DNA of 54,442 nucleotides, filler included, from Jimgerdemannia flammicorona (lineage: Eukaryota), in the NCBI GenBank assembly GCA_003990765.1. It is 3 parts of 3 records of this genome, joined end to end, with 100 filler letters (N's around TTAATTAATTAA, not from the genome) between each part and the next. Parts side by side here need not be neighbours in the genome. Positions count along the whole stretch, not along the records: positions 36,370 to 54,442 come from RBNJ01002313.1; 2 more parts are not named here. The stretch is one strand, 5' to 3'. The position numbers and the translations under genes were made by a program. Every line of letters begins with the position of its first letter. The stretch's first letter is position 1. This document shows positions 5,596-54,442 of the stretch, piece after piece. The notes beneath the pieces were generated by a model that saw only the letters and a program-made list of their open reading frames with translations, was not told where the DNA came from and made no database searches.

Positions 5596-5680
5596 GTTGA
5601 TAGTAGCTTTTCACCAAAAACTTCGCAGAAAGTGTTGTCCAAATCTTGTATCACCTGAATGTTACCGGTGAGAGAGCGCG

Positions 5681-13562: not shown

Positions 13563-13601
13563 TTTTCAGCTTAAAAGTGAGGAATCCTAATAGTATCACC
13601 A

Positions 13602-17351: not shown

Positions 17352-17485
17352 TGAGGTTTATTCACTCTAAGAATATGGGTTATTTATACAAGTTTGCTAG
17401 CTATGAGGGGGTGCGACTAAGGCTAAGGTATACTACGTTGTGGCAAACTTCGCTATGTTATTGGCTTGCATGATGTGAAGGGCTA

Positions 17486-18085: not shown

Positions 18086-18185
18086 NNNNNNNNNNNNNNN
18101 NNNNNNNNNNNNNNNNNNNNNNNNNNNNNTTAATTAATTAANNNNNNNNNNNNNNNNNNNNNNNNNNNNNNNNNNNNNNNNNNNN
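18086..18185. other. Artificial contig spacer (N run with TTAATTAATTAA)
   Basis: 100-bp N block with a central six-frame stop linker, identical in design to 36270-36369. Confidence 0.97.
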
Positions 18186-27400: not shown

Positions 27401-28416
27401 ACCGTAGCCGACGAATTAGACATTTTGATGGGTGCCCTCCTGGAAGTCGTTGAGAAGTCCTCGCCACATCACGCGCGGCTCATCGAAAATACACTCAGCA
27501 AAGCTGATCTTCAGGCAATGCTTATCGAGCTTGACACACGGTACAAATACTACGAGCCCAAAATTGTGGAAAAGATCGACGAGACGAGACAGGCAGCCAG
27601 TAATTTATCGGATGACTGGAGGGTGGAAGAGCGGCTGGGGATCGTTTCCGAACAATGGGCAGAGCTACAAGCTTTAGCAGCCGCCAAAAAGGAAGAAATA
27701 CTACGCTGTATCGAGAGACTCGAGCATCCTTACTTCTCGCTTCATTCGTCTCTCAAGCCCACAACCATAGCTCCTAGGTCTCGCAAGATCTCTGTGCCGA
27801 GGGCCAAAGCACCGGCTCGTGACACGTTGTCGCCACCACCTGCGGGCGGCAGACCCCGTACGACAGGGGCCGTCCGAGGAGCAGGAAGCAACCTCAAGAC
27901 CACGACAGTCGCCGCAGGGGCAAAGCGTCGTGTGAGTTCAAAGCCAGCACTTCCAGCGTCTACCAGCGACAGTTCGAAGCCAGAGGCATCAAAGACAGCA
28001 AAGAGTCCTCCCCGTGGCCGCGCTTCACATACTCCGCGACGGCCTTCACGAACCCCGGCGGCGCCAAATCATTACGTGGCGGATCCCAAGAACGATCTCG
28101 ATATGCTTCTAGCACGCATCGTTAATGAAATGCCCCACAAAGTTACTGTTAAGATGGTCCCAGGTGAAGTTGGCAAATACTGGTTTGGAGATGTCGATCC
28201 CAAATTGGCCTATTGCCGCGTCCTGAGAGGAGGCATGGTGATGGTTCGTGTTGGTGGTGGTTGGGAAGAGCTGTCCAAGTAAGTATTACCGTTTCACAAT
28301 GTTGGTACATTTATTGACTGGTTAATGGGTTTTGCGTTTGACTAATCAACACCTCCTTGCTTCGAATTTTAGGTTTCTGATGGGTAAGCTTCAACTTTTC
28401 TCCATTGGTTTGCCCT

Positions 28417-32228: not shown

Positions 32229-35200
32229 CTAAAGCTCCAAAAGTTGTATCCCCCTCATAGCCGCCACCTTTTTCAACAATGCTCTTGCCTCCTCCGTCTC
32301 GAACAGCCGATCCTCCTCCTCTCGCCTCGCACCTCCCACCGTCGTCACTTGGCCCTTCCCTTGTGTCCCCACAGCGGCCTCCTCCCCAGCCCTGCTCCTC
32401 AGCCTTCTGAACACCTCTGTATCGTCCATACCGAGTACACGATGGACGCGAGTCAGGTCGGGTACGGGCTCAATCTCAAGAGCAGCGAGCACATTCGTCA
32501 GGTACCCTATATCGGTGGCGAGCTGGCGGGCTCCCTGAGGCGACAGGGAGGGCACGCGCAGGATTTGGTCGAGTAACGCATACATCGTCCCGCGTGAAAG
32601 CGATGTATACCAGAGGTGGGTGACCTCCTCGGCGGTGATAGTGGGCGCAGGCGGCGCGGTGGGGGGTGGTTTCGCGACGGACGCGGAGCGCGACCGCGAG
32701 CCGGGAAAGATTGACGGGGAGGGCAGGGTCACATTGACGTTGACGTCGACTGGCGCAACGCCGTCGTCCGTTTCCCGCTCACCCACAAACTCGGCTGTGT
32801 CCTCCCCCTGCTGTTTTGTCTCGTCTTTATTCGCTGGGGCCCCATCCTCGTCCGCGAATGGCAGCCCCTCGACGCCGAACGCGAGCGCGTCGCGATCGAT
32901 GGCGTAGACTTCGAACTGCTGCGGCAACGTGAGCAACTGCTCGCCGACGCTGGTGATGTAGGGGGATGGTGAGAGGCTGAACTGTGGGATCTCGAGGTTG
33001 AACGGGCTGCGACCCTGGCGTCCGCCAAGCGAGGATGTGTCGTCCGCGGTCCAGACAGCGTTCATGGCCGCGACGCCGGTGAGGTGCCTGACGATGGGGA
33101 CGTGGACGGTGTCGAAGACGAAGCGCTGACAGGCGCGGGTGAACCCGGTGAGGGCGAGCGATGCACTGGACAAGAGCGCTTGGCCCGGCTGGTCGAACAC
33201 CGATAGCAACCGCCCGAGTTCGTAGCTGTTGAGTGACGACTGACGTAAGAGTGACAACGACGCCTTGGGGCCGACCTGGCTCTGCGGGGACACGTGTCCA
33301 TACAGGTGCGGGTGTGCGCCGACGCCAGCAATGGTGGGCGGGACGGGGGTGCCTCCTCCGTCGGACCTGACGAGGCTCTCTCGCCTGGAGTGGCGGGGGG
33401 AGAGCGGGGCGATGAGGCTCTCACGACGGTCACCGCGCGGTATGATGCTCTCGCGGCGAGCGCGGTCGACAAACGGGTGTTCGTCGTCATCGCCCTCGGC
33501 GCCGGGGTCTTCGATGAGCGACCGCGTCGAGCCCAGGGCCTTGCGCGCCCTGTCCTCAAGCGCCGTGAGCCGAGCGGCCATCCCACGGCACGCCGCCAGC
33601 AGCCGCAAGCCGAGCTGGAAGTTAGACCATTCGCCTTGCTCGAGCTCGTCCTCGTCGAAATCAAAGTCCGAGTCGTCTGCACGGTCCATAGAGATGCGTC
33701 TATCCGGCTTGGTTGCCGCCCGACCTTTCGTTCCCACCACCGCCCCGGAGCCGGTCTTCTTGACCCCCTTGCCGGCTCTTTTGTCTGCGGCGTCCAATCC
33801 GCAATCGATCCTGACCTGCCCGAGCACCTTTCCGAACTCACGCGCCGCCTCCTCAAAATATGAGTTCAGCGTGGCCACGAGCCCGGCGCCAGCAAACCCG
33901 TGTGTCAGCTCGAGGCATCGGGTGACGGCCGCGTCGGCGAGCGAGAAGACCCGTGCGACGGCCGCGTCCGCCAGGAGCTTGGCCGGGTCGGTCGCACCGG
34001 CGGTATGGGCGGGGTCAACGTGACGATCCGAGGGTTTGAGTGCGGAGGCGAGTTGGTTGGAAAGGTAGTTGTGCTCATACGCTGCGTAGTCGCGCTGGAA
34101 CTCGTGGAACGGCTCGTAGAGGATGTAGGCCCATGCGTGTGGATCGTCATGCGTCTTGGGACCGGACATAGAGAGGTGGGTCGGGTGGCCGCCCGATGTG
34201 CGGCGGAGGAGCGGGGAGGCAATGGTAGTGGCGGAATTTAGTGTCTGGGCGGTTGAGGTGTCCGGGGCGGCGACGACAGTTGGGCGTGCGAAGACGCGTT
34301 CGAGGGATGTTCCGAATTTCTCCGTGGCGACGAAGGCAGCGATAATGCGCGGGAGACACTCTTCGCCGTGATGGTCGACGACGGCGGCGAGACGGGCGGA
34401 GACGGTGGGGGCAAGGGAGGTGAAGAGGGCACGGACGAGGGATTGGGTTGTGGTGCGGGGGTCTGGGAATATGCTGCCGCACCATGCGTACTCTTCGTTG
34501 AGGACCACAAAGGATTCTTGGTAGAATCGGGAGAGAAAGTCGGTGAAGGCCGGATGGGACTGGGAAGCAGAGGAGGAGGAGGAGGAAGGGGAGGAGGAGG
34601 TGGTGATGGTGGTGGTGGTGGTTGTCGTGCTTGTGGGTTTGGCCTCGGTCGATGACCCTTCCTCCTCCATCAGCGTTTTCTCGCTCCACATCTTCACTAG
34701 CAACTCCGTCCGCGAGTCAAAATAGCAATCCATAAAATCCCCCCTGCGCTGGATCCGCTCAAAGATGACAAAGTACTTGTGGCACGCTACGGCGTCATGA
34801 TCGACCAGCGCCTGTGCAAGTTGCGGCCTGACGGCGCGCTCAAGTTCCCCCTGCAGGCGCTCAAGCAATGCGCGACGCTGCTCGTACTCTGGTGTGTTCT
34901 GGAACACGTCGAGGCTCCGTCTTGCGTCCTCTAGCCTTACGGCAGCGCGATCGTGGTCACCCGCCGCGAAGATGCGCGACGCCTCTGACTCGAGGTTGGA
35001 CCAGTTCTCAGCCTCACGTAAGGCGGCGCGGCAGGCCTCCATGCGTGACTTGACGAGGTCAAGCTGCTTAAGACGCTCGAGAGCGCGGGAGGTGTCGTTC
35101 TCGACGCGGGAAAGGTTGTTACGCACGGTCTCGACGGCCGTCTTGGTCGCCAAGGCGTCCTCCTTCATGAGCTGGAGGTCGTACAGGACCCGCGGCATGT

Positions 35201-35662
35201 TCTTGACCACGGCATCGGTCGTGTGGGTCAGCCGCGCGGAGACTTCCTGACTGAGGAGCTGTAGCTTGGTCACGAGCATGGTAGCGTGCTGGTCGGTGGG
35301 AAAGGCGGTGGTGGTGGTGGTGGTGGTGGTCGAGGTAGTGGGAGAGCGCGCGTACACGTCGACGAAGGTCTTGACGTCCTGAGTGGTGTCGACCAGGCCA
35401 GCCAGCAAGGCGTCATTCGCGTCGGGGTCCTCGCCACCAGCAGTTTCGGCGGTGGGGACGCCGGCGGTTGGACGGTTCTGGTGGAGTGCGACGGAGGAGG
35501 AGGAGCTCCCGAGGGCGAGCGAGGCGTTGATCCAATCCTTGATAACAAAGCTTGGGTCGAGGAATGCGGCGAAGTCGACGTTGCCTGCGGACGAGAAGGA
35601 ACGCTGCAATGATGGGGGGGGGGGTCGAACCTAATGTGAGAAGTTGGGTCGTCTCGAGACAT
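32229..35662 (-). CDS. COG7: Conserved oligomeric Golgi complex subunit 7, apparently single-exon; first ATG (35662) is out of frame by 1 nt in a G11 run
   Basis: DFAAFLDPSFVIKDWIN, LVTKLQLLSQEV...NMPRVLYD, FSLSPSPYITSVGEQLLTLP and QLATDIGYLTNVLAAL match the COG7 family. Confidence 0.88.
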
Positions 35663-36269: not shown

Positions 36270-36369
36270 NNNNNNNNNNNNNNNNNNNNNNNNNNNNNNN
36301 NNNNNNNNNNNNNTTAATTAATTAANNNNNNNNNNNNNNNNNNNNNNNNNNNNNNNNNNNNNNNNNNNN
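36270..36369. other. Artificial contig spacer (N run with TTAATTAATTAA)
   Basis: Same design as 18086-18185. Confidence 0.97.
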
Positions 36370-37147
36370 AATGCCAAAGGGGTCCAGGCCAGGATCTGTG
36401 GCCTAGTGGTTGGCAAGGAGTTGGAATTGGTGAGGAGTGGGACTGGCATGGGGTTTGGACCTGGAGTGCCACAGTGAAAAATTGGATGCCGCCGAAGTAT
36501 TAGGTAGTCTGGTGGCATGTACTGAGGAGGAATGTGATGCTTAACTTCTGCTCAGGACACCTTGTTGTAGGGAGCTGCTTTGACTGTGAGGAGTGCCATA
36601 ATGTCGGACAGGAAGGGGGATTGGTACAGATGCTGGAACATTGGCTAGGGGAGTGTAAGGTGTTGGGAGACTTTTGGCAGGCTATTGGAGACCGCTTGGG
36701 GGTAAGGTGTAGGGGTGATGATGTACAGGAGAGGTGGGAGGACCTGAGGGATTGATTGATAGGAGGGGATAGGGAAGAGTGGATTACTCTAGGCTGGACA
36801 TTAGCTATTTGGGTTGGGCTGGCCGGCCACTGGCTATTTGTATTTGAGGAGGAGAAGTGACTGAGCTTGGGGAGCCAGTTAGCAAGGTGGCAGTTCCTTA
36901 TGGAGGATACCTTGACAGGCTGGTGGCTTGGTTGGGGGCTGCAGGGGGGTCAGAGGCACCACTTAATGGTGAAAATTTGTAGTCAGAGTGGTGGGAGAGT
37001 TGGAGTTATTGGTGAGAGAGTGGTCTTTATATGTGATGAGGTGGGGTGGGGCCACCCGATGGGGATCGGATAGGGGGTGGTGATATTGTATACTTATTCA
37101 TAGACTGGTAATAAAGACAGAGTCCAAGGGACTATAAAAAAAAAAAG
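36370..37147 (+). mobile_element. LINE copy 3, 3' end with poly(A) tail
   Basis: CEECHNVGQEGG...EHWLGEC is homologous to the copy 1 ORF2 C-terminus. AATAAA at ~37110 and an A run at 37136-37147. Confidence 0.9.
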
Positions 37148-37194
37148 ATATAAAGCTAAATATAAATTCCAGTAACTAAAACTACTAAGTTCCA

Positions 37195-37392
37195 GGACTG
37201 GCATTATTTAGTGTTACATCAAAATACCAGTGCTGGAATAATTTCGTGTCACCTCAGAATACCGGTGCTGGTATTATCCAGTGTTATATAAGAATACTGG
37301 TGCTGGCATTATCCAGTGTTACATGAGAATACTGGTGCTGGCATTATCTAGTGTTACATGAGAATACCAGTGCTGGCATTATCTAGTATAAC
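37195..37392. repeat. ~35-bp tandem array, ~5.5 copies, inside LTR family 2 U3
   Basis: Unit GAATACTGGTGCTGGCATTATCCAGTGTTACATGA. Confidence 0.9.
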
Positions 37393-37399
37393 AAAGAAC

Positions 37400-38203
37400 T
37401 TAGAGCAGAAAGTTCAGGATTATGGGGGCTTCATCATCATCATCACTGAAGGAGATGAGATCCGTGAATTCATCGTTTTCATGTACTTCGATGTTATGCA
37501 GGATGATGTCATTGATGACATCATCACGTTCAGCTGTGGTGGAAAAATCAGGGACAAGGTCTGGAGCTCTCCAGTCTATGAGATTCTCTTCAACAAAATA
37601 AGGAACAAATGTGGGGTCTTGGGGAGATCTAACCCAGATGCTTGGGCCTTGGAATACTGAGATCAATCCTTGCAGGAATTGATCTGGGTTGTCCTGAAGG
37701 ATAGGGTGCCAGAAGTCTTCTACTTCTTCGCTGTTGAGGGTGATAGTGGACTGGGCTTCTGTAGCCACCCTGACTTCTAGTGCATTGATATGGTAGGATG
37801 ATAGGTCTCTGAAATCTGAGACTCTAACATACTCCAAGTTGGGGATCGACTATGGTGCATGCCTGAAGATCTGATGGATCTTCCTAGCTATCCTTGTTTC
37901 GTGTATATCCATGGGAGTGGCATCTTGTAGCTCTTGGGTACTGGCCTGTGGGAACTCCCGGCAGAGGAGGTTTCCTATTTTGTACTCCTACCATATTTGG
38001 AGGCATTCGGTAGCAATGGTGATCCTTGTTTCCATTTTGTAGTGGTATAGAATAAAGTGATAAGGGTCTGCAGTACTCAGGTTGACACTAGGAGTCCTTC
38101 TTAAGTGGGTCCTTATGGCTCTTCTGATGTCTTGGAACATCCTTTACTCAACCAAGATACCTTGGTGATTTCTTGACCTTGAGGTTTGGCAGGCAGCAGG
38201 CAT
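37400..38203 (-). pseudogene. U3-embedded accessory ORF of LTR family 2 (267 codons plus stop, three internal stops, no frameshift)
   Basis: AAACAAAATG start and TATAAAAG ~80 bp upstream. Reads MPAACQTS...EYKIGNLL...IARKIHQIF...SIPNLEYVRVSDF...DDDDEAPIILNFLL*. Confidence 0.78.
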
Positions 38204-38444
38204 TTTGTTTATGGTAAGTCTTTGAGCTATTTTGGGATTGGTGGTTCTGTTGGTTGCTGCTACTGCAGTTCCTTGATCCTTCTTTTATATTCTTCAGGAT
38301 GGTCATGCTGTGGTCACAATGACTTACAGTTGGTCATCATTGCTCATCTCATATGCCATATGATCTTCTTGTGCTCCGATCTGGAGGCTTATAAGAAAAG
38401 GCTGTCTCCTGTACTGATGTCATCATTCTGGGGTCACTGTTACA

Positions 38445-40510
38445 ATATATATAAATCATATCCAGCTACCTTTTGGCTTTCTTTGATTGAGACTATAACT
38501 ATTATCCTTAACTTGACAAAGTTTAGTATCTTGGTACTCAGATTATTGAGGTGATGTAAAGTAGTAACTGTGGCTTATATTGTAGTATAGGATCTTCAGT
38601 TAGAGAAAATACTGGTCATATATCCTGTTTTTTGGCAATAGAAGCATACTTTGCTTCTTCAAAGTTCATTTCTTTCTCCTTTCGTGAGTTTCTTAAAGAT
38701 ACTCAGCTGGGTGGGTTCAGAATTTTAGAATGTCCTAGAGGTAGATATAGAGGGAGCAAGATGCTTCATACTTGGGTTCTTCTTTCTTGCTCTAAGATTT
38801 TTCCTTGTTTTAGAATTGGTTTCAAGGCAGAATTGTTCTAGCTGTTAGGATTCACTTGATTATAGTTTTGATTATAGCTAGATACTATTGTTAGTAATTA
38901 TAACCTACTAGGTATTCTTGTTCTCATATCTTTCTTGTGAGCCATTCTGGTAGTATATTGAATAAATTGCCTGCTCTTGTACCATTCCATGTTTCATCAT
39001 TGGCAATATATCCTAGACCAATAATATTCAGAAGTGACTTGAGTTTTGTATAGAAGGTCTTGAATTTCTCTTTACTATCTATATTAAATTTGAGATTGTG
39101 GAGTTTTACTTGGAATTCAGTGATCAGAGTTTCATTATAATATTGAGAAATTATGAGTTTTTTGAGCCTAGGGGCTGCAGAGTGATCTCTATACCCAGGG
39201 GTATTATTTATTATATTTTGGACAACAACTATAGGTCAGATATTCCATATAAGAGGTTTTTAGGAAGAGTTTGCCATCATTCTTCAGCAGGTCTCTGGAA
39301 GAATATAACAACTTGATGGATATAAGCTGTAAAAATAGCTAATAGTTGTTTGATAGTATGGTCTTGGTTATTTGTTTAGAGGTAGTCAGTAACTTATTCA
39401 TTGGTCTATTGATTGGCTTCAAAGTTAGTATCTATTATACTAAGGAAGCTTTGAACTTCTTGTGCAGTACTGTTAAAGATAGATAAACTCAGGCTCTTTA
39501 TTAGTTGGGTCTGTTCTGCTAGGACAGTAATAGTTGCTACCATTATAGCTATCTGGGCCATGAGGTCTAAGTTTGCTAGTTTGCTATATTGTTTACTAGA
39601 GGTAGTTAAACTACTGATAGTAGAGTTACTGGTATAACTTGAGGTACTGATATAGAGTGTAATAGTGTTCTTTGAGTCTATATGAGTTACTGGAGTAACT
39701 GTTGTCTGGTATAAGGACTTGATAAATAACTATATATTGTTTTATAGGTATATTTTATTCTGAGGAAGATATATCTTTTTTGGCAGTATATCTATAATAA
39801 AATTTAGTGAGATACTCCTCCTCTTCTTCATTTTGGTCTATATATAGTTGGGTTTATTCTGTATCAAAGTAGATGGTATCAGTTGTATATTAGATTTCAG
39901 ATGGACTTAAATCAAAAGCTGGTTGAGATTCTGCTTCAGATTTAGGTAAAGTTGTAGCTGAGTCTACTTCTGGTTCAGAGTCTGGTTATTGACAAAGGGT
40001 TTCTCTCTCTTCTTCTTTGAGTATATAGTGGGTCTTGTAATTCTGAAAATAGTGGTATAAGGTAGTCTTGGTCCTGGTAAAGTGATAGCTGGTAGAGTTG
40101 AGCTACTTAGCTATAGTGGCTTAGGCTTCATAAGGAACTAAGACTAGGAAAATAGCTACTGGTTATCCTAGGTTACATAGGTCTGTTGAGCTTATAAAAC
40201 ACTTATTGAGAAGAGTAAAAAAAGCTTCTATAAGACCTTCTTCATCTTAACTTATAGAGTAGAGCAAAGAGTTTGGTGAATAGAGTTTTATCTATCTTCT
40301 AATTTAATTGGAGTACTTTTTTATATATATGAAAGCTTGTCCCACTTATTATAGGTGTAATGGTCTAATTGTTCTTATATATCAGGTTCAATTTGCTTTA
40401 GATTGTCAGTAGTTGGGCTTAATACTGATTTGTATAAATTTCTATAGAGATTTGTAGCTAGGTAAAAAAGTATCTTGAAGTAGAATTGGATCATAAACTA
40501 CTGCTATCCA
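38445..40510 (-). pseudogene. Ty3/Gypsy internal region (gag remnant) downstream of LTR family 1 copy A
   Basis: Gag-like EFQVKLHNLKF...FYTKLKSLL (~38950-39120) and zinc knuckle CFYCQKTGY (~38620-38650). PBS-like TGG 2 nt after the LTR end at 40510. Confidence 0.65.
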
Positions 40511-40512
40511 GT

Positions 40513-43156
40513 TTTAAGAGAGTACTTTGTTAGAGTACTGTTATGTAGTTCTGAAAGAGGTTTTAGAAATTTCTAGATATTTAATGACTATTTTCTTAAA
40601 ATCAAAACCAATTTCATATAGAGTACATCCTCTATACTAATTGATTTTAAGAGTAAGTTGATATCTCAACCAAAGTCCCTTTTTGGACTTATTCTGGATA
40701 TTCAGAATATTTTATATTTCAGAAAGTTTAAGAAACTAAGACCAGCTTAGTTGAATCAGTGTATCACTACAGAAAATACCCAATTAGGAAATTTTGGGAT
40801 CTAGCCAGAAGTGAGATCTAATATAGTACAGATCCACCTAAGAGCAGCCCATGAGTTATTATATAGGTTTAATTACTATTTATAATATTACTATTAGTTA
40901 ATACTAGGAGTAGTATGTGAAGGGATATTTGTATAGGAAAGTATTCTTGACTTATTCATCTGTATTCTTGTCTGTATTTTTGTCTAAGTTTCTGAGATCT
41001 GAAAGAGTAGTTATTTATACTAATGGAAGACTATCTGGACTATATTAGTACTTAGTATTTTGATGAGTCAGAATACAGTCATATAATACAAGTGTGAACT
41101 AAAATATCAAGAGATCAACTGACTGCTGAGTCAGGATATAGTTATGTAGTATAAGGCTAATTTAACTATACTAATAACCACTACACTATTTAAAGATTTA
41201 GACACTATCTGGATATTCTTCAATAAGATCACCATTGATAACATCATCTCTGATAAAGTAGTCATCTAAGAAGAGTGGTTTTTAGATTACATCTCTCTGT
41301 TCATTTATATAATAATATGTTAGAACTATGTTATTGTTTTACAGGATGACATCATCTATTTCATATGCTAGATATGGTATTAGTGGGCAAAGAAGGAATA
41401 TATTATCTTCTCTTTCATCAGATTTGCTATCTATATATCTTTAGTAGATTACAGTGCTATGTATTGCAGATAGTACTCTGAACAAGTTGATCTGGATCAG
41501 AATCAAATCCCATCCAGATTAGCTCAGATGGGATTCAAATCTCATCTGGATTGATTCAAATCAACTATTGTTTTGATTTCCAAATTAGATAATTAAATGT
41601 TTATATCAATAACGTGATGAATAATCATCCAATTTTGATGATCTTGGTGTCATTTGAAAGCCCTTAAGAAGGCCTTTCTAACAATATCAAGACCTTGGAA
41701 ATTAGATTATGTCTTGCCGAGTTATCAAGGAAAATGTCTGACTTACCAATTTTGGAAATTTCTTCAAAAGAATGCTTTCCTTAATAGCTTGGCAACACAT
41801 AATCTGATTTTAATATTCTTGGTATCATTAGAAAAGCGTTATTACAGGCTTTCAAATGACACCAAGATCATCAAAATTAGATGATTATTTATTAAGTTAT
41901 TAATGTAAACATTTAATTATCTAATTTGGAAATCAAAACAATGGTTAATTTGAATTAATCTGAATGGAATTTGAATCCCATATAAGTTGATCTGGATGGG
42001 ATTCAATCTGAATCTCATCTGAATCCAATACAGATTAAATTGATTCATTAAGAGCAATAGTTACAGAGTTATAATATACTGATAGCTATTATTCATTTGG
42101 CTTATACTTGGGAAGTGAGATTGTTGGTTCTATCTTGAGGGTTGACTGAAGGTATAGCTTGTGTTCTCCAGTCTCTTCATTATAGTTGAAGTAATTAGGT
42201 ATGAATGTAGATTGATACTCATACCAGTGGTCATTGTCTCATAGGTCTTGTATATAATTATGAACTATTATAAGTTCATTGGTAGGATTAGGAGAGTGAT
42301 CAGAACTGGTAGGAATCTTTGACTAGAGGTCATATCAGTATCAGAGGGATCATTGTCTTCTGCTTTTTCATTATTGAACTAGATTATATTATAGATATCT
42401 TTCATAATATATCTGACTTTAAGTATTTACAGAATGTGGTCATTTGGGTATAAGAAGAGTCTGTCTATAGTTTGAGCATACTCAATATACTTGTTGTTGA
42501 GTACTTGTATCATATCATCAATTTGGCTATAGATTAGAGTGGTAATCATTTCAGTAGTAGTAACTCAGAGACAGAGAATAAAGATACTGTACTTATAAAA
42601 GAGTTCTCAGTGTTTGCAGATGATAATTTTCTGATATTGAGATATTTTAATAATATCTATATATAGTGATAATTAACCATATCTTCCAGGAGGTAGCTGA
42701 TCTGATAATAGCTTAAGATTTGACTGATTCCATAGGCCTCACTAAGCATATTTAGAATATTCCATTAGGCTTCTACAAAATAGAGAGGTGCTAGGCTATG
42801 GATATTTATGAGAGATAGAGAAGCTGTGACTTTATTGATAATAGTATTCCAAATGTCAGTTCAGATGCAGTTGTAGATTTCAGTAGTCATATCTGGATAT
42901 ATATTTGAGAGTTATAGTTATTTTTTTAATTTGTTGTGATTATCTATTTTGAGATACTGTATATTCAGAATATATGTTTTTAGTCCTAATTGGTAAGATC
43001 TCATTTTTATAAATCTTATATTCTGTAACTTTAAGTTAACTCAACTTTGTGATCTATAACTTTAGTTTGACTCAACTTCATAATCTGATAGGTAATTTCT
43101 AAATTTGTTCTGAGGGTGATAGGTAATTTTGGTGACTTAGAGAATATATACTTATA
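40513..43156 (-). mobile_element. LTR family 1 copy A (5' LTR), interrupted by a MITE; degraded accessory ORF at 41198-42890
   Basis: Collinear with 44590-46650 along its length. Termini are mutated versions of TGTAAG...CTTACA. Confidence 0.85.
41462..42059. mobile_element. Foldback/MITE (~600 bp) with ~270-bp inverted arms
   Basis: TATTGC...GCAATA ends (possible TA duplication). TTTTGATGATCTTGGTGTCATTTGAAAG pairs with CTTTCAAATGACACCAAGATCATCAAAA. Absent from the homologous position in LTR copy B. Confidence 0.85.
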
Positions 43157-44172
43157 AAGTTAGTCTATTACATATCTCCTAGAGAAATTGATATACCCAA
43201 AAATGAGATTAATAAACTTCTCAAAAAAGAATTCATTAGACCTAGTATATCACTATATGATATATCAGGTCTCTTTATTATCAAGAAAGGAAGAGACCTC
43301 TAAATATATATTGATTACCAAGATCTCAATAAACAGACTATCAAGAACTGTTGCCCATTATCTCAAAATAATGAAATCTTTAATAGACTTACAAATCCAC
43401 AATTTATGAGTTATTTTGATCAATAAAATAGTTACTGGAAAATTATTATAAAAAAAGAAGATAACTACAAAACTGTCTTCTGAACTCACTATGAATATTT
43501 CAAGTTTTTAGTTATATTCTTTAGCTTAACTAATATTCCTATAATCTTCTAGATACTGATAAATACTATCCTATATCTATACCTAGACAAAATTGTTATT
43601 GTCTATATTGATTGACATTCTAGAAATATTTTGAATATCTTGAACTAGTACTACTTAAACTCTTCAAAAACTGACTCTATATAAAAACTTAGCAAATATG
43701 AATTCATTCTGTAGATAATTCAATTTTTTGAATATATTATCACTTTTAATAAAATCAAAGTAGACTCTAGCAAAATCTCTGCAATTAAGAAATGACTCAG
43801 ACCTAAGAAGCTATAAGACCTTCAATTATTCCTTAGATTAGCAAACTATTAGAGACAATTTTTTGTAAACTTTGCTAAAATCACTATCACTCTTATCTAA
43901 CTGACTAAGTATAGTAAAAAAGAATGACAACTCTGGCCTACAAAGTAAGAAAAAGACTTTAATAATCTTGTTAAATGGGTAACTAAAAAAGATACAACCT
44001 TTTAAGCTTTGAAAGATACTTTGATAATTACTCTTATATTTTAATAGCAAATTCTACTCTACTATATGAAATTAAAACTAATGTCTCTGACCTAGTTCTT
44101 GAAGCAAGAAGGACACTCTATGGCCTACCATTCTTATAAGTTTAATAATAATAAAATTAACTATACTATCTA
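43157..44172 (+). pseudogene. Ty3/Gypsy reverse transcriptase-RNase H fragment, heavily transition-mutated
   Basis: EFIRPSIS...YIDYQDLNKQTIKN..PL, SYWKI, YKTVF, FLVIFFSLTNIP, DKIVIVYID and IKTNVSD correspond to Gypsy FIRPS, DYRxLN, GYWQ, KTAF, PFGLTNAP, VYLDD and TDAS. Confidence 0.85.
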
Positions 44173-44410
44173 TATAAGCATACAACCTCTAAGTCACCAA
44201 AATAACATATTACTCTCAGAACAAATTCAGAAATCATATGCCAGATCATAAAGCTAAGTCAAACTGAAGTTATAGATTACAAAGCTAAGTCAAACTGAAG
44301 TTACAGATCACAAAGCTAAGTCAACTCAAAGTCACAAAATACAAGATTTATAAAAACAGATCTTACCAATTAGAACTGAAAGTATATATACTGAATATAC
44401 AGACATATTA
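44173..44410 (+). mobile_element. LTR family 1 copy C, 5' part
   Basis: TATAAGCATACAACCTC matches the reverse complement of the copy B end. Contains three ~31-bp AAAGCTAAGTCAAACTGAAG repeats. Confidence 0.85.
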
Positions 44411-44589
44411 TAATAGATAATCTTTCTCTGATAACATTCAGGTTATACAAACTTCTGGCAATACTTAAGAGAGAATAGGTACTAGCAATATGATAATCAA
44501 TGAGCATTCCAAGGTATATGCTAGACAGAGCAGCTCTAGTATATTTGACTAGAGAGAAGTCATGGCTTGGGAGAAAGTATGAGGGGCTT

Positions 44590-46650
44590 TATAAGAGGGT
44601 TGCTTTTTAGGGTAACCGTTACGTAGTTCTGGAAGAGTTTTCTGGAAGTTCTGGATATTCTGGAAGACCGTTTTCTTATGGTCAAGATCAATTTCATATG
44701 GAGTACGTCCTCTATGCTTATTGATTTCAAGATTGGGTTAACATCTCAACCAAAGTCCTTTTTTGGACTAGTTCTGGATGTTCAGGATTTTCCATATTTC
44801 AGGAAGTTCAAGAAACTAAGACCAGCTTAGTTGAATTGGCATATCGCTACAGACAATACCCAATGAGGAAATTTCGTGATGGGGTTAGGAGTAGAACCTA
44901 ACAGAGAGCGGATTTACTTAAGAGTGGTTTGTGAGTTATGGAATAGGTTTATTTGCTATTCATGATATTACTATACTAGGAGTATTGGTGTGAAGGGGTA
45001 TTGTGGGGAAGTATTCAGAAATGTTCTTGTATGTTCGAGTCTGAGATTCTGAGGTCTGTGGGAGGGGGTATTTATACTAGTGAGGGGTTATCTGGGCTAT
45101 GCTGGATATGGATGTGGCACTAAGTGCCTTGCTGAGTTGGAATGCAGTCACGTAGTACAAGTATGATCTGACATGTCAAGAGATCATCTGACTGCTGAGT
45201 CAGTTCACAGTCATGTCATATAAGACTAATCTAACTATACTATGACTGCTAGGCTATTTATGGTTTAGGCACTGTCTGAGTAGTCTTTGATGACATCACC
45301 ATCAATTGCATCATCTCTGATGAAGTAGTCATCTAGGAATAATAGTTCATGGATTACTTCTCCTTGTTCGCTGAGGTAATAGTACATTGGAACTTCATCT
45401 CTGTCCTACAGGATAGCATCGTCTGTCTCGTAGGCTGGATAAGGTGTTGGTGGGCGAAGGATGGGTGTATTGTCTTCACTTTCATCGGATTCACTGTCTG
45501 CGTACCTTCTATAGGTTACAGTACTATGAGTTGCAGGATTGTAGTAAGCTGGTGGCTGTGGTTCATGTCACTTGTACTCAGGTGGTAGAGTGGTTGGTTC
45601 AATCTCGAGGGTTGTCTGGAGGTACAGGTTGTGTTCTCCAGTCTCTTCATTATAGTTGAAGTAGTCAGGGGTGAATGCGGGTTAGTATTCATGCCAGTGG
45701 TCATTGTCCCAATAAGTCTCATATGTGGTTATGAACTGTTGTAAGTTCATCAGTAAGATTGGCGGTATGATCAGGGTTGGCAGAGATCCTTGGCTAGAGG
45801 TCATGTCGGTATCAGAGGGATCGTTGTCTTCTGCTTCGTCTTCATCAAACTGGATTATATCGTAGACGTCCTTCATAGTATATCCGACTTGGGGCATTTG
45901 CAGGATATGGTCATCAGGGTGTGGTAAGGTTCTGTCTGTGGTCTGGACATACTTGAGGTACTTGTGGTTGAGTTCTTATATTATGTCATCGATTTGGCCA
46001 TAGGACAGAGTAGCAACCATTTCGCTGGTAGTAACTCAGAGGTGGGGAATAATAGTGCTGTACTCGTAGAAGAGTTCTTGATGTTTGCGGGTGATGAGCT
46101 TCTGGTGTTGAGACATCTGGGTAATGTCTGTATCTTGGTGGTGTTCGAGCATGTCTTCCAGGAGGTGGCCAATCTGGTAGTAGCTTGAGATTTGTCTGAT
46201 TTGGTGGGCCTCGCTAAGCATGTTCAGAGCATTCCATCAGGCTTCCATAAAGTAGAGAGGTGCCAGGCTATGGATATTCATGAGGGGCAGAGGGGGTGTG
46301 GCTTGGTTGACAATGGCATTCCAAATGTCAGCGCGGATATGGTTGTAGATCTCAGTGGTCATGTTTGTGTATTTGGAAGTTGTGGTTGTTGTTTGTTTTG
46401 GTTCTCTGATTCGATGTGTCTTGGTGCTCGGTATATATGCATTTGGTCCTGATTGATAAGATTCTGTTTGTGTAAATCTTGTGTTCCATGACTTTGTATT
46501 GACTCAGCTTTGTGCACTGTGACTTCGGTTTGACTTAGCTTCATGATCAAGCAGGTGATTTCCAGATTTGTTCAGAGGTCATGTGTGATTTCAGTGGCTT
46601 GTTCAGAGGGTAATGTGTAATTTCAGTGGCTTGGAGGTTGTGCACTTACA
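44590..46650 (-). mobile_element. LTR family 1 copy B, solo LTR (2061 bp) with 5-bp TSD
   Basis: Termini TATAAG (mutated TGTAAG)...CTTACA. GGCTT at 44585-44589 and 46651-46655. TATAAATA at 45069-45076 and AATAAA at 44948-44953 on minus. Confidence 0.9.
45265..46362 (-). pseudogene. U3-embedded accessory ORF of LTR family 1 (365 codons plus stop, ~6 internal stops, no frameshift)
   Basis: ACAAACATG start and TATATA ~70 bp upstream. Reads MTTEIYNHIRADIW...YYQIGHLL...ITRKHQELF...IIPHL followed by an acidic, Pro/Tyr-rich tail. Confidence 0.8.
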
Positions 46651-49600
46651 GGCTTGCTGACTAGAGGATATGAAAGGAGAAGAGATAGTACTGGAGGACA
46701 GGAGACTGAGAGGATGAGCTTTACAGATAAGATAAAGAAGAGTCATCTGATAACTGGACTGGAGGGCTGGCTGAGGAAGAGCAAGGAGATGGTGAGGGCT
46801 GCAGGATCTGGTGGAGCAGCCTATGGCAGTGAGAGCAGTAGGGCTGGAGGAGTAGTGGTTAGGAGAAGTAGGACTGCTGATGGCAAGGAGACTACCAATC
46901 TGAAAAAAAATCCAGATATGACAGTTGATGGTAGATCTGGACAGAGGGAGAGCATGAGGTCTTGGGATCTGACAGATAGTGTGATGGGCCTAGTAGCAGT
47001 ACTGTTACTTAAGAAATTAAAGTCAGAATTTACTGTCACATTGTGCTTCTAAGGATTGGCAGTAATAATGAGAATGATTCTGGGGCTTCTGGTCTAGGAG
47101 GTGAAGGGAGCAGTATTAGTGAAGTTTTTGAAAGGTCTGGAGGGGGTGGAGGTAGGCTTCAATTAGGAGAATATGCTATTGGAAGTGATGGAGAAGAGAG
47201 TGGTAGTGGGGTGGATGATGATCCCTATAACCTGGTACTTATGCTGAAATCCCCAAGTAGTACAGCTGACAGTACTGGATGTTCCTATAGTGTCAAAGGA
47301 AATGGCCAAGGGGTTGATTGTAGAGGCCATTAAGGAGTATGGAGATATTATAGATATTTGGTTTCAGGTCTGAGAAGGTACAGAATTCAGAACAGGAGAT
47401 ATAGATGTCAGAGTGTGGCTGACAGGCAAGAAGAATATATAGAAGGCCAGAAACTAGCCAGTAGTTCTCAAATAGAGATCTGTGGAGTGTAAGGTCTCAA
47501 GAGTGAAAGAGATGCTAGAGAAAGAAGAGAACTTACTAGAGGCATTAGAGGATCTGGCTGGAGCTATAAAGAGAAGGAGATTAGTCTGGAAGAAGTTTGA
47601 GACCAAGATGGTTGTAGAGATCATAAATGACAAGAAGGTGTGGCTGGATTAAGCAGCCTGGGAGAGGGCACAGGGGAGGTATATTCAGAAGGATCTGTTG
47701 GCTAAGTTGAAAGGGAGGACTGCCAGGGGGATCACTACTGATGAAGCGGATCAAGGGCAAGTGCCTGAGCAGAAGAGAAGGGAGCAGCACCAGAGGGGAC
47801 CCCAGGAGGGGGGGAAGGTGCAGGGCTGAGTATCATTATGGAGGATGCAGATTTGATAGAGGAGGAGTGCTCTCAGTATGGGGTACCAGATGGGGCTATA
47901 GGGGATGATGAATTGCAGGATGTGCTGGAGGAGGATTGGGATGAGTCAGCAAGGAGGAATGCAGAGGGTAGGCAGATGGAAGGGGGGAAGAGAGTGGTCC
48001 AGAGAGTGGCAGAGACTGAGGTCAAGGAGTAATAACTGTGGAAAATACTTGAAAATATAGTGGCTGAGGAGCTGAAGGGAGAGGACTTCTGGATACTGAG
48101 CCATGAGACACTGGGGTGAAATCCTGCATAGTGAGGAGATGTTGTAAAAACTCCAGAATGAGATAATAGTGGTATTACTGGAGGCTGAGACATATCAGGT
48201 AGATGATGACAGAGAGGTAGTACTTCTGGTAATTGTAAATAACAGGGCTGCATATATGTGAGGTCCAAGGAAAGGGCTGGCAAAGTGGCGGATAGTGTGT
48301 GAGAAGTACCATATAGAGAAGGAGACTGTAGATGATACAGATTATCAGGAGATCTTAGAGGCATTAGAGGCTCAGCAGGGAGAGACAGATGAACTGGAGG
48401 CAGAAAGGAACCTGGATATCACTGCGGATGCAGTGAGTATGGAATTGTAGAGTAGATAGTAGTTCTTTAAATAATATTTTTCAATATAAACAGTATAACT
48501 AGAATCATATCTTTGAATATCAATGGACTATGAGAAGTAGTGAGGTAGCAAAATATCTTTGAATGACTAAAGGAGACAGAAGCAGAACTGCAGAATATTG
48601 GCCATTATGGAGACTTGGATATTCAGAACTGGATGAAGAAATTGGGTGGTCTGGCTGTTTGATAAGAATGTGAAGGCATTCTGGTTAAGAAGGATAAGAA
48701 GGATATTGGAGACATTAGACATTGGGAAAGCAGGGTAGTGTGGAGAGTTTGGAAGAGGCCAGGCTGGAGACTCTTAATGATTGGGTCCTGTTATTGTCCA
48801 GCAGAAAGGGGGGAGAGAGTGGAATGGATTCAAGGACTATAAGAGTTTAAAGTATTGGTGGAGGCAGGAATTGATTGTTTATGGAGAGACTTTAATATGA
48901 TAAATAATAGAAAGACAGACAGAATAGATGTGAGAAGGGACATGGTAGATAGTGGAAGCCTGGGAGGAAGTCAAACATTTGAGCTCTTTAGTGGATATCA
49001 GGAGGCTTAGATGGGAGAATCATAGGGTCTTTACCTACTAGGTGGCAGGGCTGGGCTCAAGGATTGACTGGATGTTGACTACTGATTGCTAGAGAGTTGA
49101 TATCCAGAGAACTTTGGAAATTGTTTGGTGTCTGTGATCAGATCACTGGGGTCTTCTAGGAGGGAGGTGTTTTGGGGGAAGTGGGAAGAGACCTGGACAT
49201 TGGCAACTAAATATCTCTTTGCTAGAGGAGACCTCCCTATAGGAGGGATGGGTGGTAGATATTAGCTCCAGAATTCTTAATTAGAGAGCAGAGGGGCTGG
49301 AAATTGGAGATCACTGGATATGATTGAAATCTGAGACATAATGGTACTGTGGGAAGGCAGAATGGATGTAGGGTACTCAGAAGAAGAAGTGAGTGAGGTG
49401 GGCCTCCCAGAGGTTGGTGAGATTGTTAGTGACTTAGACAGATCTGTTAAATGATGGTACAGAAGAGGATTGGTGAATACAGTGGATCAGGCAAGAGGTG
49501 GAGGAGCTGAAGAGTTTATTGAGGCAAGAGGAGGACCTACAGATTAAGGGTATGGTGGCCCAGCTGTAGTAACAGATATTGGAGAAGGGGGAAAGGTCTA

Positions 49601-52183
49601 TCAAGTTTTTATCATGGCTTCTGCAGATGAGGAGAGTATGGCAGCAGTGGGAGGGGGTTTTGGATGAGGCTGGGGAGTTGGTTGTTGAGATACTGGAGAT
49701 TCTGGACTAGTTGAGCAGATGGTGGGGATATTTGTAGAGCAAGGAGGATGGAGGGGTGGTGCTGAACATTGACAGGAACTTGAAGGAATAGCACCCTGAT
49801 CAGGCAGTGGGCTTTGGTGACCTTGGTACTGCTGTCCAAGGGGAAGAGATTTGGCAGGTTTTGATGACAACAAGCTCTGAGACTACGTCAAGAGAGAATG
49901 GCTTACAGTGGTATTTTTGGAAGTAGATGGCATAAGTTGAGTTGATCCTAGAGAAAATGATAGCAATGTACAATAAAGTGATTGGCTCAAGAGTATAGAT
50001 TGGGGGGCAGATCTTGGGTCTTATGTCTCTACTGTTTAAGAATAAGAGGAGGATAGAGGAGTGAAAGAACTGAATACTGATCATGCTTCTAGATATGGAT
50101 CACAAACTGGTCATGAAGATACTGGTGGCTAGGCTATAAGGAATAGTGCAACAAGTTCTGGAGACTGAGCAGAGAGAATTCATAAGGAGACAGCTGATTA
50201 GAGATGGGACAGCCTTGGTGTATGGTGTTATTGAGGGAGCTCACACTGCTGGGGTGGATGACTGGCTGGTTTTCTTAGATCAAGAGAAGGCCTATAACAG
50301 AGTCTGATGAGTGTGGTTAGAAAGGGTTCTAAAGTACATTGGGGTCCCTCTTGGGGTCTGGCAGGCCTTGGTTGGTCTGCTAGTAGGGTATTAGACAGTA
50401 ATTATAATAAATAGACACAGAGGGATTTCATTCCCTTTGGGCAGAGGAGTGCTGCAGAGGGGTCTACTGTCACTTATTCTATATGTGTTATCTCTGGAGT
50501 CTCTTTTGGATAGAATATGGTGAAAGATGGGAGGGTTGGATATTCTGAAGGTTAATTGGAAGGTGGGGGCCTTTACCAACAATATGATAGTTGGGCAGAG
50601 GTTAGCTGAGGATGTTGCAGCCCTGAAAGAAGCAGTTGAGTAATATGAGAGATACTTAGATACTAAGCTCAACTGGTATAAGTGTGAGGCTTTGGTGTTG
50701 AGAGGAGAGATAGTAGGTGGGGATGTGATTATTGTCCCTATAGAAGAGGCTGTTTACTAACTAGAGATTAACTTTTCAGTATATAGCTCCTTCCCACCAT
50801 ATGAGTGGTGAGAGTAGTAGTTGGCAGAGTGGGGAAGAACTCTCTTTGGGTGGAGTAATTGCCATATATCTCTAGCAGAAAGGATGACAGTATTGAATAT
50901 ATACTGGTTATCTAAGCTATGGTATCTGAAATACCACTTGGACTTTCTGGCATAGGTGGTCAAGTAATTTTTGAAGATGGCCAGAACCTGAATATGGGTA
51001 GAGCAATGGGGTCAGATTGGTTAGAAGGTATTGACCTGGCCAGTAGACCAGGGAGACCTGGGTCTGATAGATTTTCCCAAGTATCTTTATTGCTTGAGTG
51101 CATGGTAGCCAAAGCATGCAAGTGAGTTGAGGGGTGGAGAGTGGATTCCCCTCATGCAGAGGGTATGGGAGGTCCAGTTCTCCCCCCATAATGTGACTGG
51201 GGATCTTCTTCTCTAGTGGCTTAGGAGGAGAGTCAGAGGATATATTATAGGGGATTCTAGTAGGAGGTGGTTGATGGGTGCACCATATTGGTCTCTGATA
51301 GAGGGGTGATGAGGGGGAGGAGGAATAGAGATCTCAGATGTGGAGGTGGAACTACCTTCTGTTGGGCAGGGCACCAGTGGATGACTTCTGCTTAGAGGAT
51401 AGCATAGAGTGCTTTTAGAAATATGAGAGAGATCTGTGGCCTAAGGCATAGCAGGGGGGTAGGGATTGATAAGGAGTGAGAGTGGAATAGCATTTGGCAG
51501 TAGGGCAAGCAGGTGGCAAGATAGATTTCCCCCAAGTTCTGGATAGCATAATTCTATGATATAATGTAATTTTGAACTACCAGATGAGTCACTTGGTGGA
51601 AGGAGGTACTCAGGAGTATGAGGAGTGTCTGAATGTCAGGCAGGAGAGAGAAGTGGTACAGACTTCTGAATATTGACTAGGGGAGTATAAGGTGATGAGT
51701 AACTTTTGGAGAGAGATTGAGATACAGCTAAGGGTACACCCACCAGAGTTAGTGGTAAGAGGGAGATGGGGTGACCTCTGGAGGAGGCTGGTGGGGGAGT
51801 TGAGAGATGAGTGATTGATATTAGGATGGGTGCTAGTGATTTGGGTTAGACTTGTGGGACATTGGCTATATGTATTTAAGAAGGATCAATGGTTGACATT
51901 AGGAGTGAGAGTAGCTAGATGAGAGTAGTTGATGATAAATATATTGAATAAGTAGTGGAGGAGTGGAAGTGCTGATGGAGGATATTAGAGATAATTGGTG
52001 GAGACAATCTGTAGGAAGAGTGGGGGGATGATTGGAATAGCAGGGGGATTAGCAGTATTTCAGAGAAATGGTGAGTGTGAGAGGGAGTTTCCAAGTGAGA
52101 TTAGGTGAGGAGCTCATCTGTATTAGTATATCATAGATGGTTTGGTAAAAAAAGTAAAAGAAAAAAAAAAAAAAAAAAAAAAA

Positions 52184-53402
52184 AGACATATTAAAATAAA
52201 GAACTATAATAAACCAGACAAATAAACTCTCAAACATATACCCAGTTATGACCACTGAAATCTACAACTACATCCATACTGATATTTGGAATACTGTTAT
52301 CAATAAAGCCACTGCTCCTCTACTCCTTATGAATATCTATAGCCTAGCACCCTCCTATTTTATAGAAGTCTGAAGAAATACTCTGAACATACTTAGTAAG
52401 ACCTACTGAATTAGACAAATATTAAGCTACTCTTAGATTGACCACCTTCTGGAAGATATAATTAGCCACAACCATAATATAGATATTATTGAAATGTCTC
52501 AACACCAGAAACTCATTACTTGTAAATACTAAGAACTCTTTTATAAGTATAGTATCTTTATTCCTTACCTCCAAGTTACTACTGCTGAAATGGTTGCCAC
52601 TCTAATCTATGGACAAATTGATACATAGTATAAGAACTCAACTACAAGTATATTGAATACCCCCAAACTATAGACAGACCCTTCCTACACTCTAATGACT
52701 ACATCCTGCAAATACCTCAAGTTGAATATACTGTAAAGGATAACTATGATATAATTCAGTTTGATAATAATAAAGCAAAAGACAATGACTCCTCTGATGC
52801 TGATATAATCTTCAGCCAAAGATTTCTGCTAATACTAATTACTCTAATAATCTTACTAATAAACTTATAATAGTTTATAACTATATATGAGACTTATTGA
52901 GATAATGATCACTAGTATAAGTATCAATCTTCATTTTTGTCTAATTATCTCAACTATAATGAAGAGACCAGAGAATACAACCTGTATCTCCAGACAACTC
53001 TCAAGATCAAACCAATAACCTCACCTCCTGCATATGAGTGAAATGAACTACAATCACCAGTTTACTACAACTTTGCAACTCACAGCACCATTACCTACTA
53101 AAGGTATGCTGACAGTGAATCTAATAAAATATACCTCTCCTTTATCCATCAATACTATATCCAGTATATATAATATTTGACACTATCCTATAAAATAGTG
53201 ATATGGTTCCAATATACTATTATATATATAAATGAACAGAGAGACATAATCCAAGAATCACTCTTTCTAGATAACTACTTCATCAGAGATAATATTATTG
53301 ATGGTGACCTTATTGAAGAATATCCAAATAATATCTAAATCTATAAATAGCTTAGCAGTTATTAGTATAGTTAGATTAGCCTTATACTATATATGTAACT
53401 AT
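52184..53402 (+). mobile_element. LTR family 1 copy C, 3' part; degraded accessory ORF at 52248-53338
   Basis: Reverse-complement homolog of ~45210-46420. Resumes exactly at the LINE TSD. Confidence 0.85.
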
Positions 53403-54442
53403 TGTAACAGACCAAAAACGTACCACCTGAATTATAACCTAGCCAGATGACGCAAACAATTAGCATACTTACTCAGCATGATGTGACTTCCAGTGTATCA
53501 TAGTTACTCATGCCTGCCACACTTATAATTAGCCAAGACACCAGATCAGGATTGTTTACCTGTGTCCTGAGGACACACTCATGTCCGGCGGACACACTCA
53601 TGTCCTGTGGACACACTCATGTCCTGCGGACACACTCATATCCTGTGGACACACCTGTACCCAGAGGACACACCCAAACATTACCAAAGATAGTAAATGT
53701 ATAATTAGCCACATAGTAACCAGATAGCAACCAACTTGTATAAATTACCCCAGTGGCGAGAGTGAATAAAACCTCAGTCCGAAAGTTGAATACAAACCAA
53801 AGCAAAAGTCAATTGTCTGGTACACTTAGGAGAAACGCCTGCCAAAAGCCACTTGATCCAGGAAGGATTGCAACACTTAGGAGATACGCCTGCCAACGAG
53901 CCACTGCCAAGAAGTTGTGAGCTTGGTTCTCTTCTCTTCTACTCTGGTCCACTTTCCGATACAAAGCCGATTTGCCGCCCAAGTTCAAGGAAGAACTTCA
54001 CCGCCGTTTCCCAGTTAGAAATCCGCCGATTCGGGAAGGATCTGCGCCATCGTATTCCCAGTTGAAGCCGCTGGTTTAGAAGAATCCGCGCCACCCGAGT
54101 TAATTCCCAGTTAAGCCGCCGTTTTCAAGAAGTCCGCCGATTCAGGAAGAATCTGCGTCATCCGCCATTCCCAAGTTATCCGCATTCCCAGTGAGCCTGT
54201 TATGGAAGAATCCACGCCATACAATTCCCAGTGAAGCCCGCCGCTTTTGGAGAATCCGCACCAAATCGAGTTATCCGCCAAATTATCAGAATGCCCCGCA
54301 TAAGGAACCCGCCGCGCTACACAGAAATCGTCGCACTACACAGAGATCGTCACGCAGAAATCGCATAAGGAGAACCGCTAAATTACCAGACCGTCATGCA
54401 CAGAGATCGTCGCGCTACACAAGACCATCACCCAGAAATCGC
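53403..54442 (+). mobile_element. Younger LTR-like element (family 3-related), runs out of the window
   Basis: Starts TGTAAC where copy C homology stops. AACTTGTATAAAT...GAGTGAATAAAACCTCAG resembles the reverse complement of 17350-17395. CpG-rich degenerate repeats follow. Confidence 0.55.
53563..53675. repeat. 19-bp minisatellite (~6 copies) with an internal hairpin
   Basis: Unit TGTCCnGnGGACACACTCA; TGTCC-nnn-GGACA is self-complementary. Confidence 0.9.

Follow-up and report, generated by a model that had tools for sequence, protein, structure and literature searches.

The long terminal repeats (LTRs) of retrotransposons and retroviruses are treated as non-coding promoter/terminator modules, and the pipelines that annotate transposable elements, as well as the estimates of LTR age, assume their neutral evolution. 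In mouse mammary tumour virus (MMTV), sag is a complete open reading frame (ORF) of about 320-365 codons, which lies in sense orientation in the unique 3′ region (U3) of an unusually long LTR, is found in both LTRs and is kept by partial proviruses. The ORF region of the MMTV 3′ LTR controls superantigen expression (PMC2118998). An extra ORF of a fungal element is the brtn gene of Botrytis Boty/BcGypsy1, located in the internal region (PMC8365987), and the additional ORFs (aORFs) of the plant elements Ogre, Retand and Grande are also internal, some following the 5′ LTR and preceding gag, others following pol and preceding the 3′ LTR, and several are in antisense orientation (PMC7264820). The LTRs of crapaud of Podospora measure 339-443 bp, with a non-coding U3 of less than 200 bp (PMC10787394). 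Here, a 2,061-bp LTR (positions 44590-46650, minus strand), whose U3 holds a 365-codon ORF (46362-45265), is described in a stretch of 54,442 nt from the genome of Jimgerdemannia flammicorona (GCA_003990765.1). The stretch, hereafter the window, consists of joined parts of three records, those side by side not being necessarily neighbours in the genome, and its positions 36,370-54,442 correspond to RBNJ01002313.1.

The interpretation favoured here, to which a probability of roughly 0.7 is given, is that the 2,061-bp LTR belongs to a retrotransposon of a fungus whose repeats have undergone mutation resembling repeat-induced point mutation (RIP), and that its U3 carries a true accessory gene of 365 codons, set up as a self-contained transcription unit and encoding a trans-acting helper. 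The closest known system in architecture is the MMTV LTR ORF, which is likewise a whole ORF in sense orientation in the U3 of a long LTR; here, however, the host is a fungus, the element is a retrotransposon without env, and there is no sequence relation. Furthermore, sag is a membrane glycoprotein, whereas the protein under study is acidic and probably disordered, and a putative promoter of its own lies directly upstream of its ORF. With the aORFs and brtn, which are carried by Ty3/Gypsy-like elements, the ORF has in common that it is an extra, lineage-restricted frame lacking a functional annotation, but it differs from them in being placed inside the LTR itself and, hence, in being presumably duplicated in each element and in surviving in solo LTRs. 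The LTR of crapaud, a Ty3/Gypsy element, is also a RIP-affected fungal LTR, with a variable U3 as the 5′ half before the TATA and with a conserved 3′ half; the U3 described here differs in being about 1.6 kb long and protein-coding.

Searches of full-text articles gave no fungal or plant retrotransposon with an ORF inside its LTR, their scope excluding subscription journals, Repbase and supplementary files. In the plant review (PMC7264820), phrases placing an ORF inside the LTR were searched for and do not occur, nor do the phrases searched for in PMC5408684. The ‘LTR ORF’ of PMC12037069 was discarded as a candidate, as in that article the term denotes polyprotein ORFs and not an LTR-internal gene. 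A fungal LTR-borne gene is, provisionally, undescribed so far.

For comparisons at the level of single copies, the three copies found when 44590-46650 was compared with the window by BLASTN (query included) were combined with contigs from four public runs (X1, X2, X11 and X13), placed on 44400-46850 at a likeness of at least 80% (3655, 411, 413 and 326 contigs, respectively). Contig cover in the four runs is nearly nil outside 44590-46650. The ORF is present in the 5′ LTR of a truncated element (copy 1), in the solo LTR to which the coordinates above refer (copy 2) and in a third, interrupted copy (copy 3). Relatives of its product were sought by a word-indexed protein search (345 candidates) and by a HMMER pass covering all 1.84 billion representatives.

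Read on the sense strand, the LTR presents, in this order, the TGTAAG start, (A/G)AGTCA/TGACTCA-like repeats, which we take to be possible binding sites, TATATA, a CA-rich leader, the ATG, the stop codon, a TGACTCAGCAGTCA block, TATAAATA, AATAAA and about 350 further nt (table 1). The ORF is wholly upstream of TATAAATA and in sense orientation, i.e. entirely in U3. The first-pass annotation of this DNA had placed the ORF upstream of the TATA and AATAAA of the LTR, and had assigned it a TATA-like box of its own; both LTR motifs are indeed read on the minus strand, the TATATA of the ORF is kept in all three copies, and the solo LTR holds TATA, CA-rich leader, ORF and AATAAA in that order, as had been supposed. 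According to the proposed mechanism, the ORF would be part of a self-contained unit of ~1.45 kb, formed by the TGACTCA-like repeats, TATATA, the leader, the ORF, whose ATG has the context CAAACATG, and, as a terminator, the AATAAA of the LTR. An expressible copy of the ORF would therefore be carried by both LTRs of an element and by every solo LTR, and the product would act in trans as a helper of the element.

In the 3′ LTR, the ORF would also be included in the genomic RNA, between the polypurine tract (PPT) and the R region, where retroviruses have their 3′ accessory genes. This location is also what speaks for the main competing explanation, namely that the accessory gene is genuine, but is expressed from genomic or spliced subgenomic RNA starting at the 5′ LTR promoter, and is silent in solo LTRs; the MMTV LTR ORF and the snakehead retrovirus 3′ORF are precedents. 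However, the presence of TATATA and of a CA-rich leader 70 bp upstream of the ATG, kept in three copies, argues against expression from the genomic RNA only, which is considered improbable. The summed contig depth of X11 and X13, two runs taken to be RNA by guess only, is high over 44728-45055 and stays low beyond that, from 45056, which is not so in X1 and X2; no inference is drawn from this pattern, contig depth being unable to rank parts of the LTR and the loose ends at 45012 representing an indel variant. A scan for promoters and terminators of the bacterial type, the model of which is inapplicable to a fungus, remained at the level of shuffled sequence.

The ORF of copy 2 contains six in-frame stops, at codons 42, 109, 129, 227, 265 and 319, as compared with 9-31 stops in each of the remaining five frames. 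It had been described initially as a frame broken solely by stops explicable as single transitions and as occurring in all three copies: each of the six stops can indeed be derived from a sense codon by one C>T or G>A transition, and the start and stop codons of the ORF are common to the three copies. Transitions biased to CpA are the signature of RIP, which makes transitions only. The context is CpA in 196/402 of the transition sites between copies 1 and 2, and the repeats of this fungus are, by this sign, hit by RIP-like C>T/G>A mutation. At two of the stops the non-stop base is found in other copies: at codon 129 (45978) it accounts for 1993.2/2431.3 depth units in X1, 58.8/60.8 in X2, 22.5/22.5 in X11 and 2.3/4.7 in X13, and at codon 265 (45570) for 101.5/240, 42.9/55.2, 368.7/368.7 and 0/20.4, respectively. 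The expectation that a consensus would present an open ORF was borne out in part, as reversion of transitions based on the three copies removes 4/6 stops and leaves those at codons 42 and 319. The same reversion raises the identities to the two relatives described below from 161 to 170/250 (P0001) and from 109 to 111/128 (P0002). The ORF is, in conclusion, dead in all three copies of the window and open in relatives elsewhere.

The word-indexed search gave one relative and the HMMER pass two, P0001 and P0002. P0001, a metagenome protein of 247 residues, covers ORF residues 115-364 with 64% identity (161/250 identical and 201/250 positive positions); the alignment contains two 2-residue gaps only, both in-frame, and no stop, the relative being open over 247 residues. 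P0002 (128 residues) covers ORF residues 1-128 with 85% identity, and ends exactly before stop 129 of the window copy. The residue of P0001 aligned with stops 129, 227 and 265 is Q, that aligned with stop 319 is W, and stops 42 and 109 are both aligned with R in P0002. Scans of metagenome_contigs and viral_contigs for DNA of the relatives yielded no confirmed locus. Since RIP makes only transitions, transversions were used as a RIP-free signal. Among the three copies, 25 transversion columns are at the first codon position, 10 at the second and 32 at the third (chi-square p=0.0035), and, between copies 1 and 2, transversions amount to 49/1096 in the ORF, and to 43/634 and 15/251 in the non-coding parts of the LTR. 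Gap columns between the same copies number 65 and 43 in these two non-coding parts, and fewer indels are found in the ORF than in the rest of the LTR. Thus, on the basis of the open relatives, the codon-position bias, the smaller number of indels and the gain brought by reversion, the ORF is read as having been under past purifying selection in the lineages behind these copies.

These data also bear on the possibility that the ORF is a passenger, i.e. a gene fragment captured into U3 and decaying neutrally, which would be consistent with the three window copies being broken, with two stops common to all, and with the lack of a full-length open relative both among the 345 candidates and among the 1.84 billion representatives. 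However, the codon-position bias of the transversions, the lower numbers of transversions and gaps with respect to the non-coding LTR parts, and the fact that P0001 is open over its whole length at 64% identity, with in-frame gaps only, all contrast with neutral decay, and no host-gene relative was found among the 1.84 billion representatives; a captured passenger is, on the whole, quite unlikely.

The 2,061-bp unit represents the LTR of a retrotransposon. On its sense strand, copy 2 starts with TGTAAGTGCAC and ends with CCTCTTATA, the termini being TGTAAG...CTTATA, in which the final CA>TA is a transition (the terminus of copy 1 is CTTAAA), and an exact GGCTT is found on both sides. When the flanks of copy 2 are joined to rebuild the empty site, 274/450 columns are identical, across the junction, to the paralogous copy of a long interspersed nuclear element (LINE) at 5675-5246. 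The unit at 44590-46650 is, therefore, an insertion, because the joined flanks align through the junction, and it landed in the 5′ part of a LINE. Differing loose ends of contigs fall exactly at 44589/44592 (1 + 2 contigs of X2, two of X11 and three of X13) and at 46650 (three of X2). Beyond copy 1, after 2 nt, the sense strand continues with TGGATAGCAGTAGTTTATGATCCAATT, and the primer-binding site (PBS)-like sequence TGGATAGCAGTAG found there starts with TGG. At the 3′ boundary of the LTR (44589/44592), the X2 contigs, which are short, derive from another organism and do not make up one element, run on into TGGTAGCAGCAGTTTACAATCCAATT, the same PBS and leader as beside copy 1 except for three transitions and one indel; in three of them, the polypurine tract AAAGCTAAGAAGGGGAGAGT (purine tract AAGAAGGGGAGAG) precedes the LTR at its 5′ boundary (46650). 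The unit is assigned as an LTR because, in other copies, a PBS and a PPT adjoin its opposite ends. Thus, what the first-pass annotation had stated of this unit, that it is an LTR with LTR termini and a 5-bp target-site duplication (TSD), holds for the TG..CA-type ends and the duplication as well as for the PBS after and the PPT before it in other copies.

A degenerate PBS pattern detected no further PBS in the window, where no tRNA gene matching the PBS was found either. In X11, a contig of 9,601 nt matches ORF codons ~186-302 at 81% and extends for 9.2 kb beyond them; it may be a whole element. That the 2-kb unit is not an LTR, but an independent small mobile element lying near retrotransposon pieces, would agree with the absence from the window of a pair of units around one gag-pol and with the truncated RNase H that takes the place of a PPT before copy 3, but is very unlikely in the light of the PBS and leader after copy 1 that recur in X2 contigs, of the polypurine tract before the unit in three contigs, of the TG..CA-type ends with a 5-bp TSD, and of the internal TATAAATA and AATAAA, which are in LTR order.

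Several points weigh against the presence of a selected, self-transcribed gene in this LTR. The match to P0001 begins only at residue 115, whereas that to P0002 is over by residue 128, so that no one relative is open over all 365 codons, and these two are the only database relatives of the ORF family among the 1.84 billion representatives. The three window copies all share stops 42 and 319, which could indicate that the source lineage transposed with an already broken ORF, the alternative being convergent hits at CGA and TGG. Within the window, there is no full-length element with two ORF-bearing LTRs. Finally, searches of Pfam and PDB, and with the Atlas model, gave no domain, fold or structural match for the ORF protein, the function of which is a guess from composition.

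If the accessory-gene interpretation is correct, a selected gene in U3 changes how such LTRs evolve and doubles the gene dose per element, and solo LTRs, usually seen as inert remnants, could remain a source of a retrotransposon protein. Fungi would have an equivalent of the accessory genes that complex retroviruses carry in their LTRs and, should the protein act on transcription or genome defence, it would provide a handle on the persistence of elements in RIP-active genomes.

With respect to the product, Pfam gave no family for the ORF, P0001 or P0002, either at E-values up to 0.01 or up to 10, and its MMTV superantigen model matched none of the three; a PDB profile search of the ORF gave no significant match (best E 0.26). 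The AlphaFold2 model built on the ORF alignment has a mean predicted local distance difference test score (pLDDT) of 31.0, and the Atlas model of P0001 (pLDDT 0.39) has no feature match and template modelling (TM) scores of at most 0.30. The profile and structure searches thus brought neither a PDB or Pfam match nor a confident model. By its sequence, the product is an orphan protein family without annotation. The weak model, together with the sequence, suggests that the first ~140 residues may be helical and that there is little structure after them; the long tail is acidic, aromatic and proline-rich, and probably disordered. Acidic tails with bulky hydrophobic residues are typical of activation domains. 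The composition of P0001 (18.6% D/E, 14.6% F/W/Y, 9.7% P, net charge -36) fits an acidic activation domain, model confidence being low, and no DNA-binding domain was found. The preferred guess, doubtful though conceivable on compositional grounds, is that the product is an adaptor or activator that brings host factors, of transcription or of chromatin, to the LTR. The transactivator or anti-silencing role proposed in the first-pass annotation would likewise be deduced from composition.

The LTR family is likely of Gypsy type. The earlier description of copy 1 as followed by a PBS-like TGG and by gag was right for the former, TGGATAGCAGTAG being 2 nt on; the gag-like frames were recognized by eye only, and a search of them gave no Pfam family and no PDB hit, the region being heavily mutated, with a GC content of about 0.30-0.33. 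The element behind copy 1 ends at ~38450, past the gag-like frames, and its own pol is outside the window. The Ty3-like reverse transcriptase (RT) fragment, in which RVT_1 is found with an E-value of 2.6e-4, weaker than the Pfam cutoff, is a distinct piece, in which copies of the LTR inserted.

The BLASTN segments of copy 1 (40515-41469 and 42059-43138) are about 72-74% identical to copy 2 and are separated by an extra ~590 bp at 41469-42058, within the ORF; this insertion consists of two inverted arms of 228 nt (41506-41733 / 41776-42003), 84% complementary, and is foldback-like or similar to a miniature inverted-repeat transposable element. Copy 3 is inverted relative to the others, lacks the final ~630 bp, and is matched by BLASTN at 53386-52235 (inverted) and in an inverted piece at 44191-44394; a truncated RNase H, not a PPT, adjoins its start. 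Its division into two parts is due to the LINE inserted within it, which ends in a run of 24 A and has a duplication of ~18-21 bp on either side (44402-44422 / 52185-52205). The order of nesting is, therefore, LTR copy 3, the LINE in it and solo LTR copy 2 in the LINE. The LINE family has three copies in the window (488-10868 (-), with two in head-to-tail arrangement at a period of 5.2 kb, and 44423-52184 (+)), and its sense strand is strongly G-rich and C-poor in either orientation, with a GC skew of about +0.5 (-0.5 where inverted).

Table 1. Positions, in the window, of the LTR copies, their motifs and associated elements.
Feature	Position	Strand	Basis or remark
Solo LTR (copy 2), 2,061 bp, least mutated copy	44590-46650	-	ends, TSD, empty site, contig loose ends
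Target-site duplication GGCTT, left	44585-44589	.	sequence
Target-site duplication GGCTT, right	46651-46655	.	sequence
Accessory ORF in U3, 365 codons + stop	45265-46362	-	ATG at 46362, stop 45267-45265
(A/G)AGTCA / TGACTCA-like repeats upstream of the TATA of the ORF	46463-46577	-	sequence and alignment; one extra repeat unit in copy 3
TATATA box ~70 bp upstream of the ATG of the ORF	46431-46440	-	kept in all three copies; putative promoter
CA-rich leader	46363-46430	-	between TATATA and ATG; kept in all three copies
LTR core promoter TATAAATA, ~190 bp downstream of the ORF stop	45069-45076	-	sequence; kept in copy 1
AATAAA poly(A) signal of the LTR	44948-44953	-	sequence; copy 1 has AATTAAA
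LTR copy 1, 5′ LTR of a truncated element, heavily transition-mutated	40513-43156	-	BLASTN, alignment
PBS-like TGGATAGCAGTAG, 2 nt past the end of LTR copy 1	40498-40510	-	sequence, starts TGG
Gag-like frames downstream of the PBS, zinc-knuckle-like CFYCQKTGY	38473-39729	-	by eye in translations
Ty3/Gypsy RT-RNase H fragment, with the 5′ end of copy 1 on one side and that of copy 3 on the other	43157-44171	+	Ty3 RT 4ol8, E 2.1e-23 (43157-44176)
LTR copy 3, 5′ part	44172-44422	+	alignment to copies 1 and 2
LTR copy 3, part beyond the LINE; ORF ~52248-53340	52206-53393	+	alignment
LINE inside LTR copy 3, itself hit by solo LTR copy 2	44423-52184	+	RVT_1 E 4.9e-08, poly(A), duplication

A second repeat unit of the window, found on the minus strand from 38443 to ~37090 and from 15176 to ~13600 (the copies being about 71% identical over 997 nt), looks unrelated to the 2,061-bp LTR but shares its layout, with a TGTAAC start, a TATAAAAG box (TATA), a CA-rich leader and an ORF of ~268 codons (38206-37400) with an acidic tail. 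About five tandem repeats of ~70 bp (ATAATGCCAGCACCAGTATTCT...), enhancer-like, are found at 37198-37393, directly downstream of the ORF. Downstream of its ORF, the 15176 copy has TATATAAATAC and AAATAAAG, after which a gag-PR (protease)-dUTPase element is found. The region at 10870-16802 (-) is a heavily mutated piece of LTR retrotransposon (zf-CCHC E 0.14, RVP_2 E 0.0016, dUTPase E 8.6e-19), which ends against the LINE array at ~10868.

The ORF of the second unit has three open metagenome homologues, P0003-P0005 (69-85% identity; 247, 271 and 215 residues), with no Pfam family for P0003 or P0004, and AlphaFold2 gave a pLDDT of 35.5 for this family. Its N-terminus is weakly co-linear with that of the ORF in the 2,061-bp LTR (BLASTP E 7e-5, 27% over 86 residues), hhalign of the two ORF families giving an E-value of 0.0058 and a probability of 6%; nothing significant emerged from a nucleotide comparison of the two units, or from tblastx of the gag-like region of copy 1 against the element associated with the second unit. 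These data hint that the two ORF families might make up an old and so far overlooked family of regulators carried by LTRs, which could act as transactivators or antagonize genome defence. It is possible, and put forward only tentatively, that there are fungal lineages of LTR retrotransposons whose LTRs are genes, with a selected and self-promoted accessory protein, helical at its head and acidic at its tail, in U3, with two copies of it in each element and with solo LTRs that remain live.

As to the remaining parts of the window, AT-rich repeats are interspersed with GC-rich genic DNA. The GC-rich part contains two very long open frames, presumably host genes, at 19124-28282 (+; 3,052 residues) and 32229-35630 (-; 1,133 residues). 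Tandem repeats separate the mutated retrotransposon from the first host gene, namely three 210-bp units at 16803-17432, of which the first two are 97-100% identical, and a shorter array at 17486-17757 with 54/28-bp spacing. Runs of N at 18086-18185 and 36270-36369 (four, 44 each, 176 in total) adjoin repeat borders.

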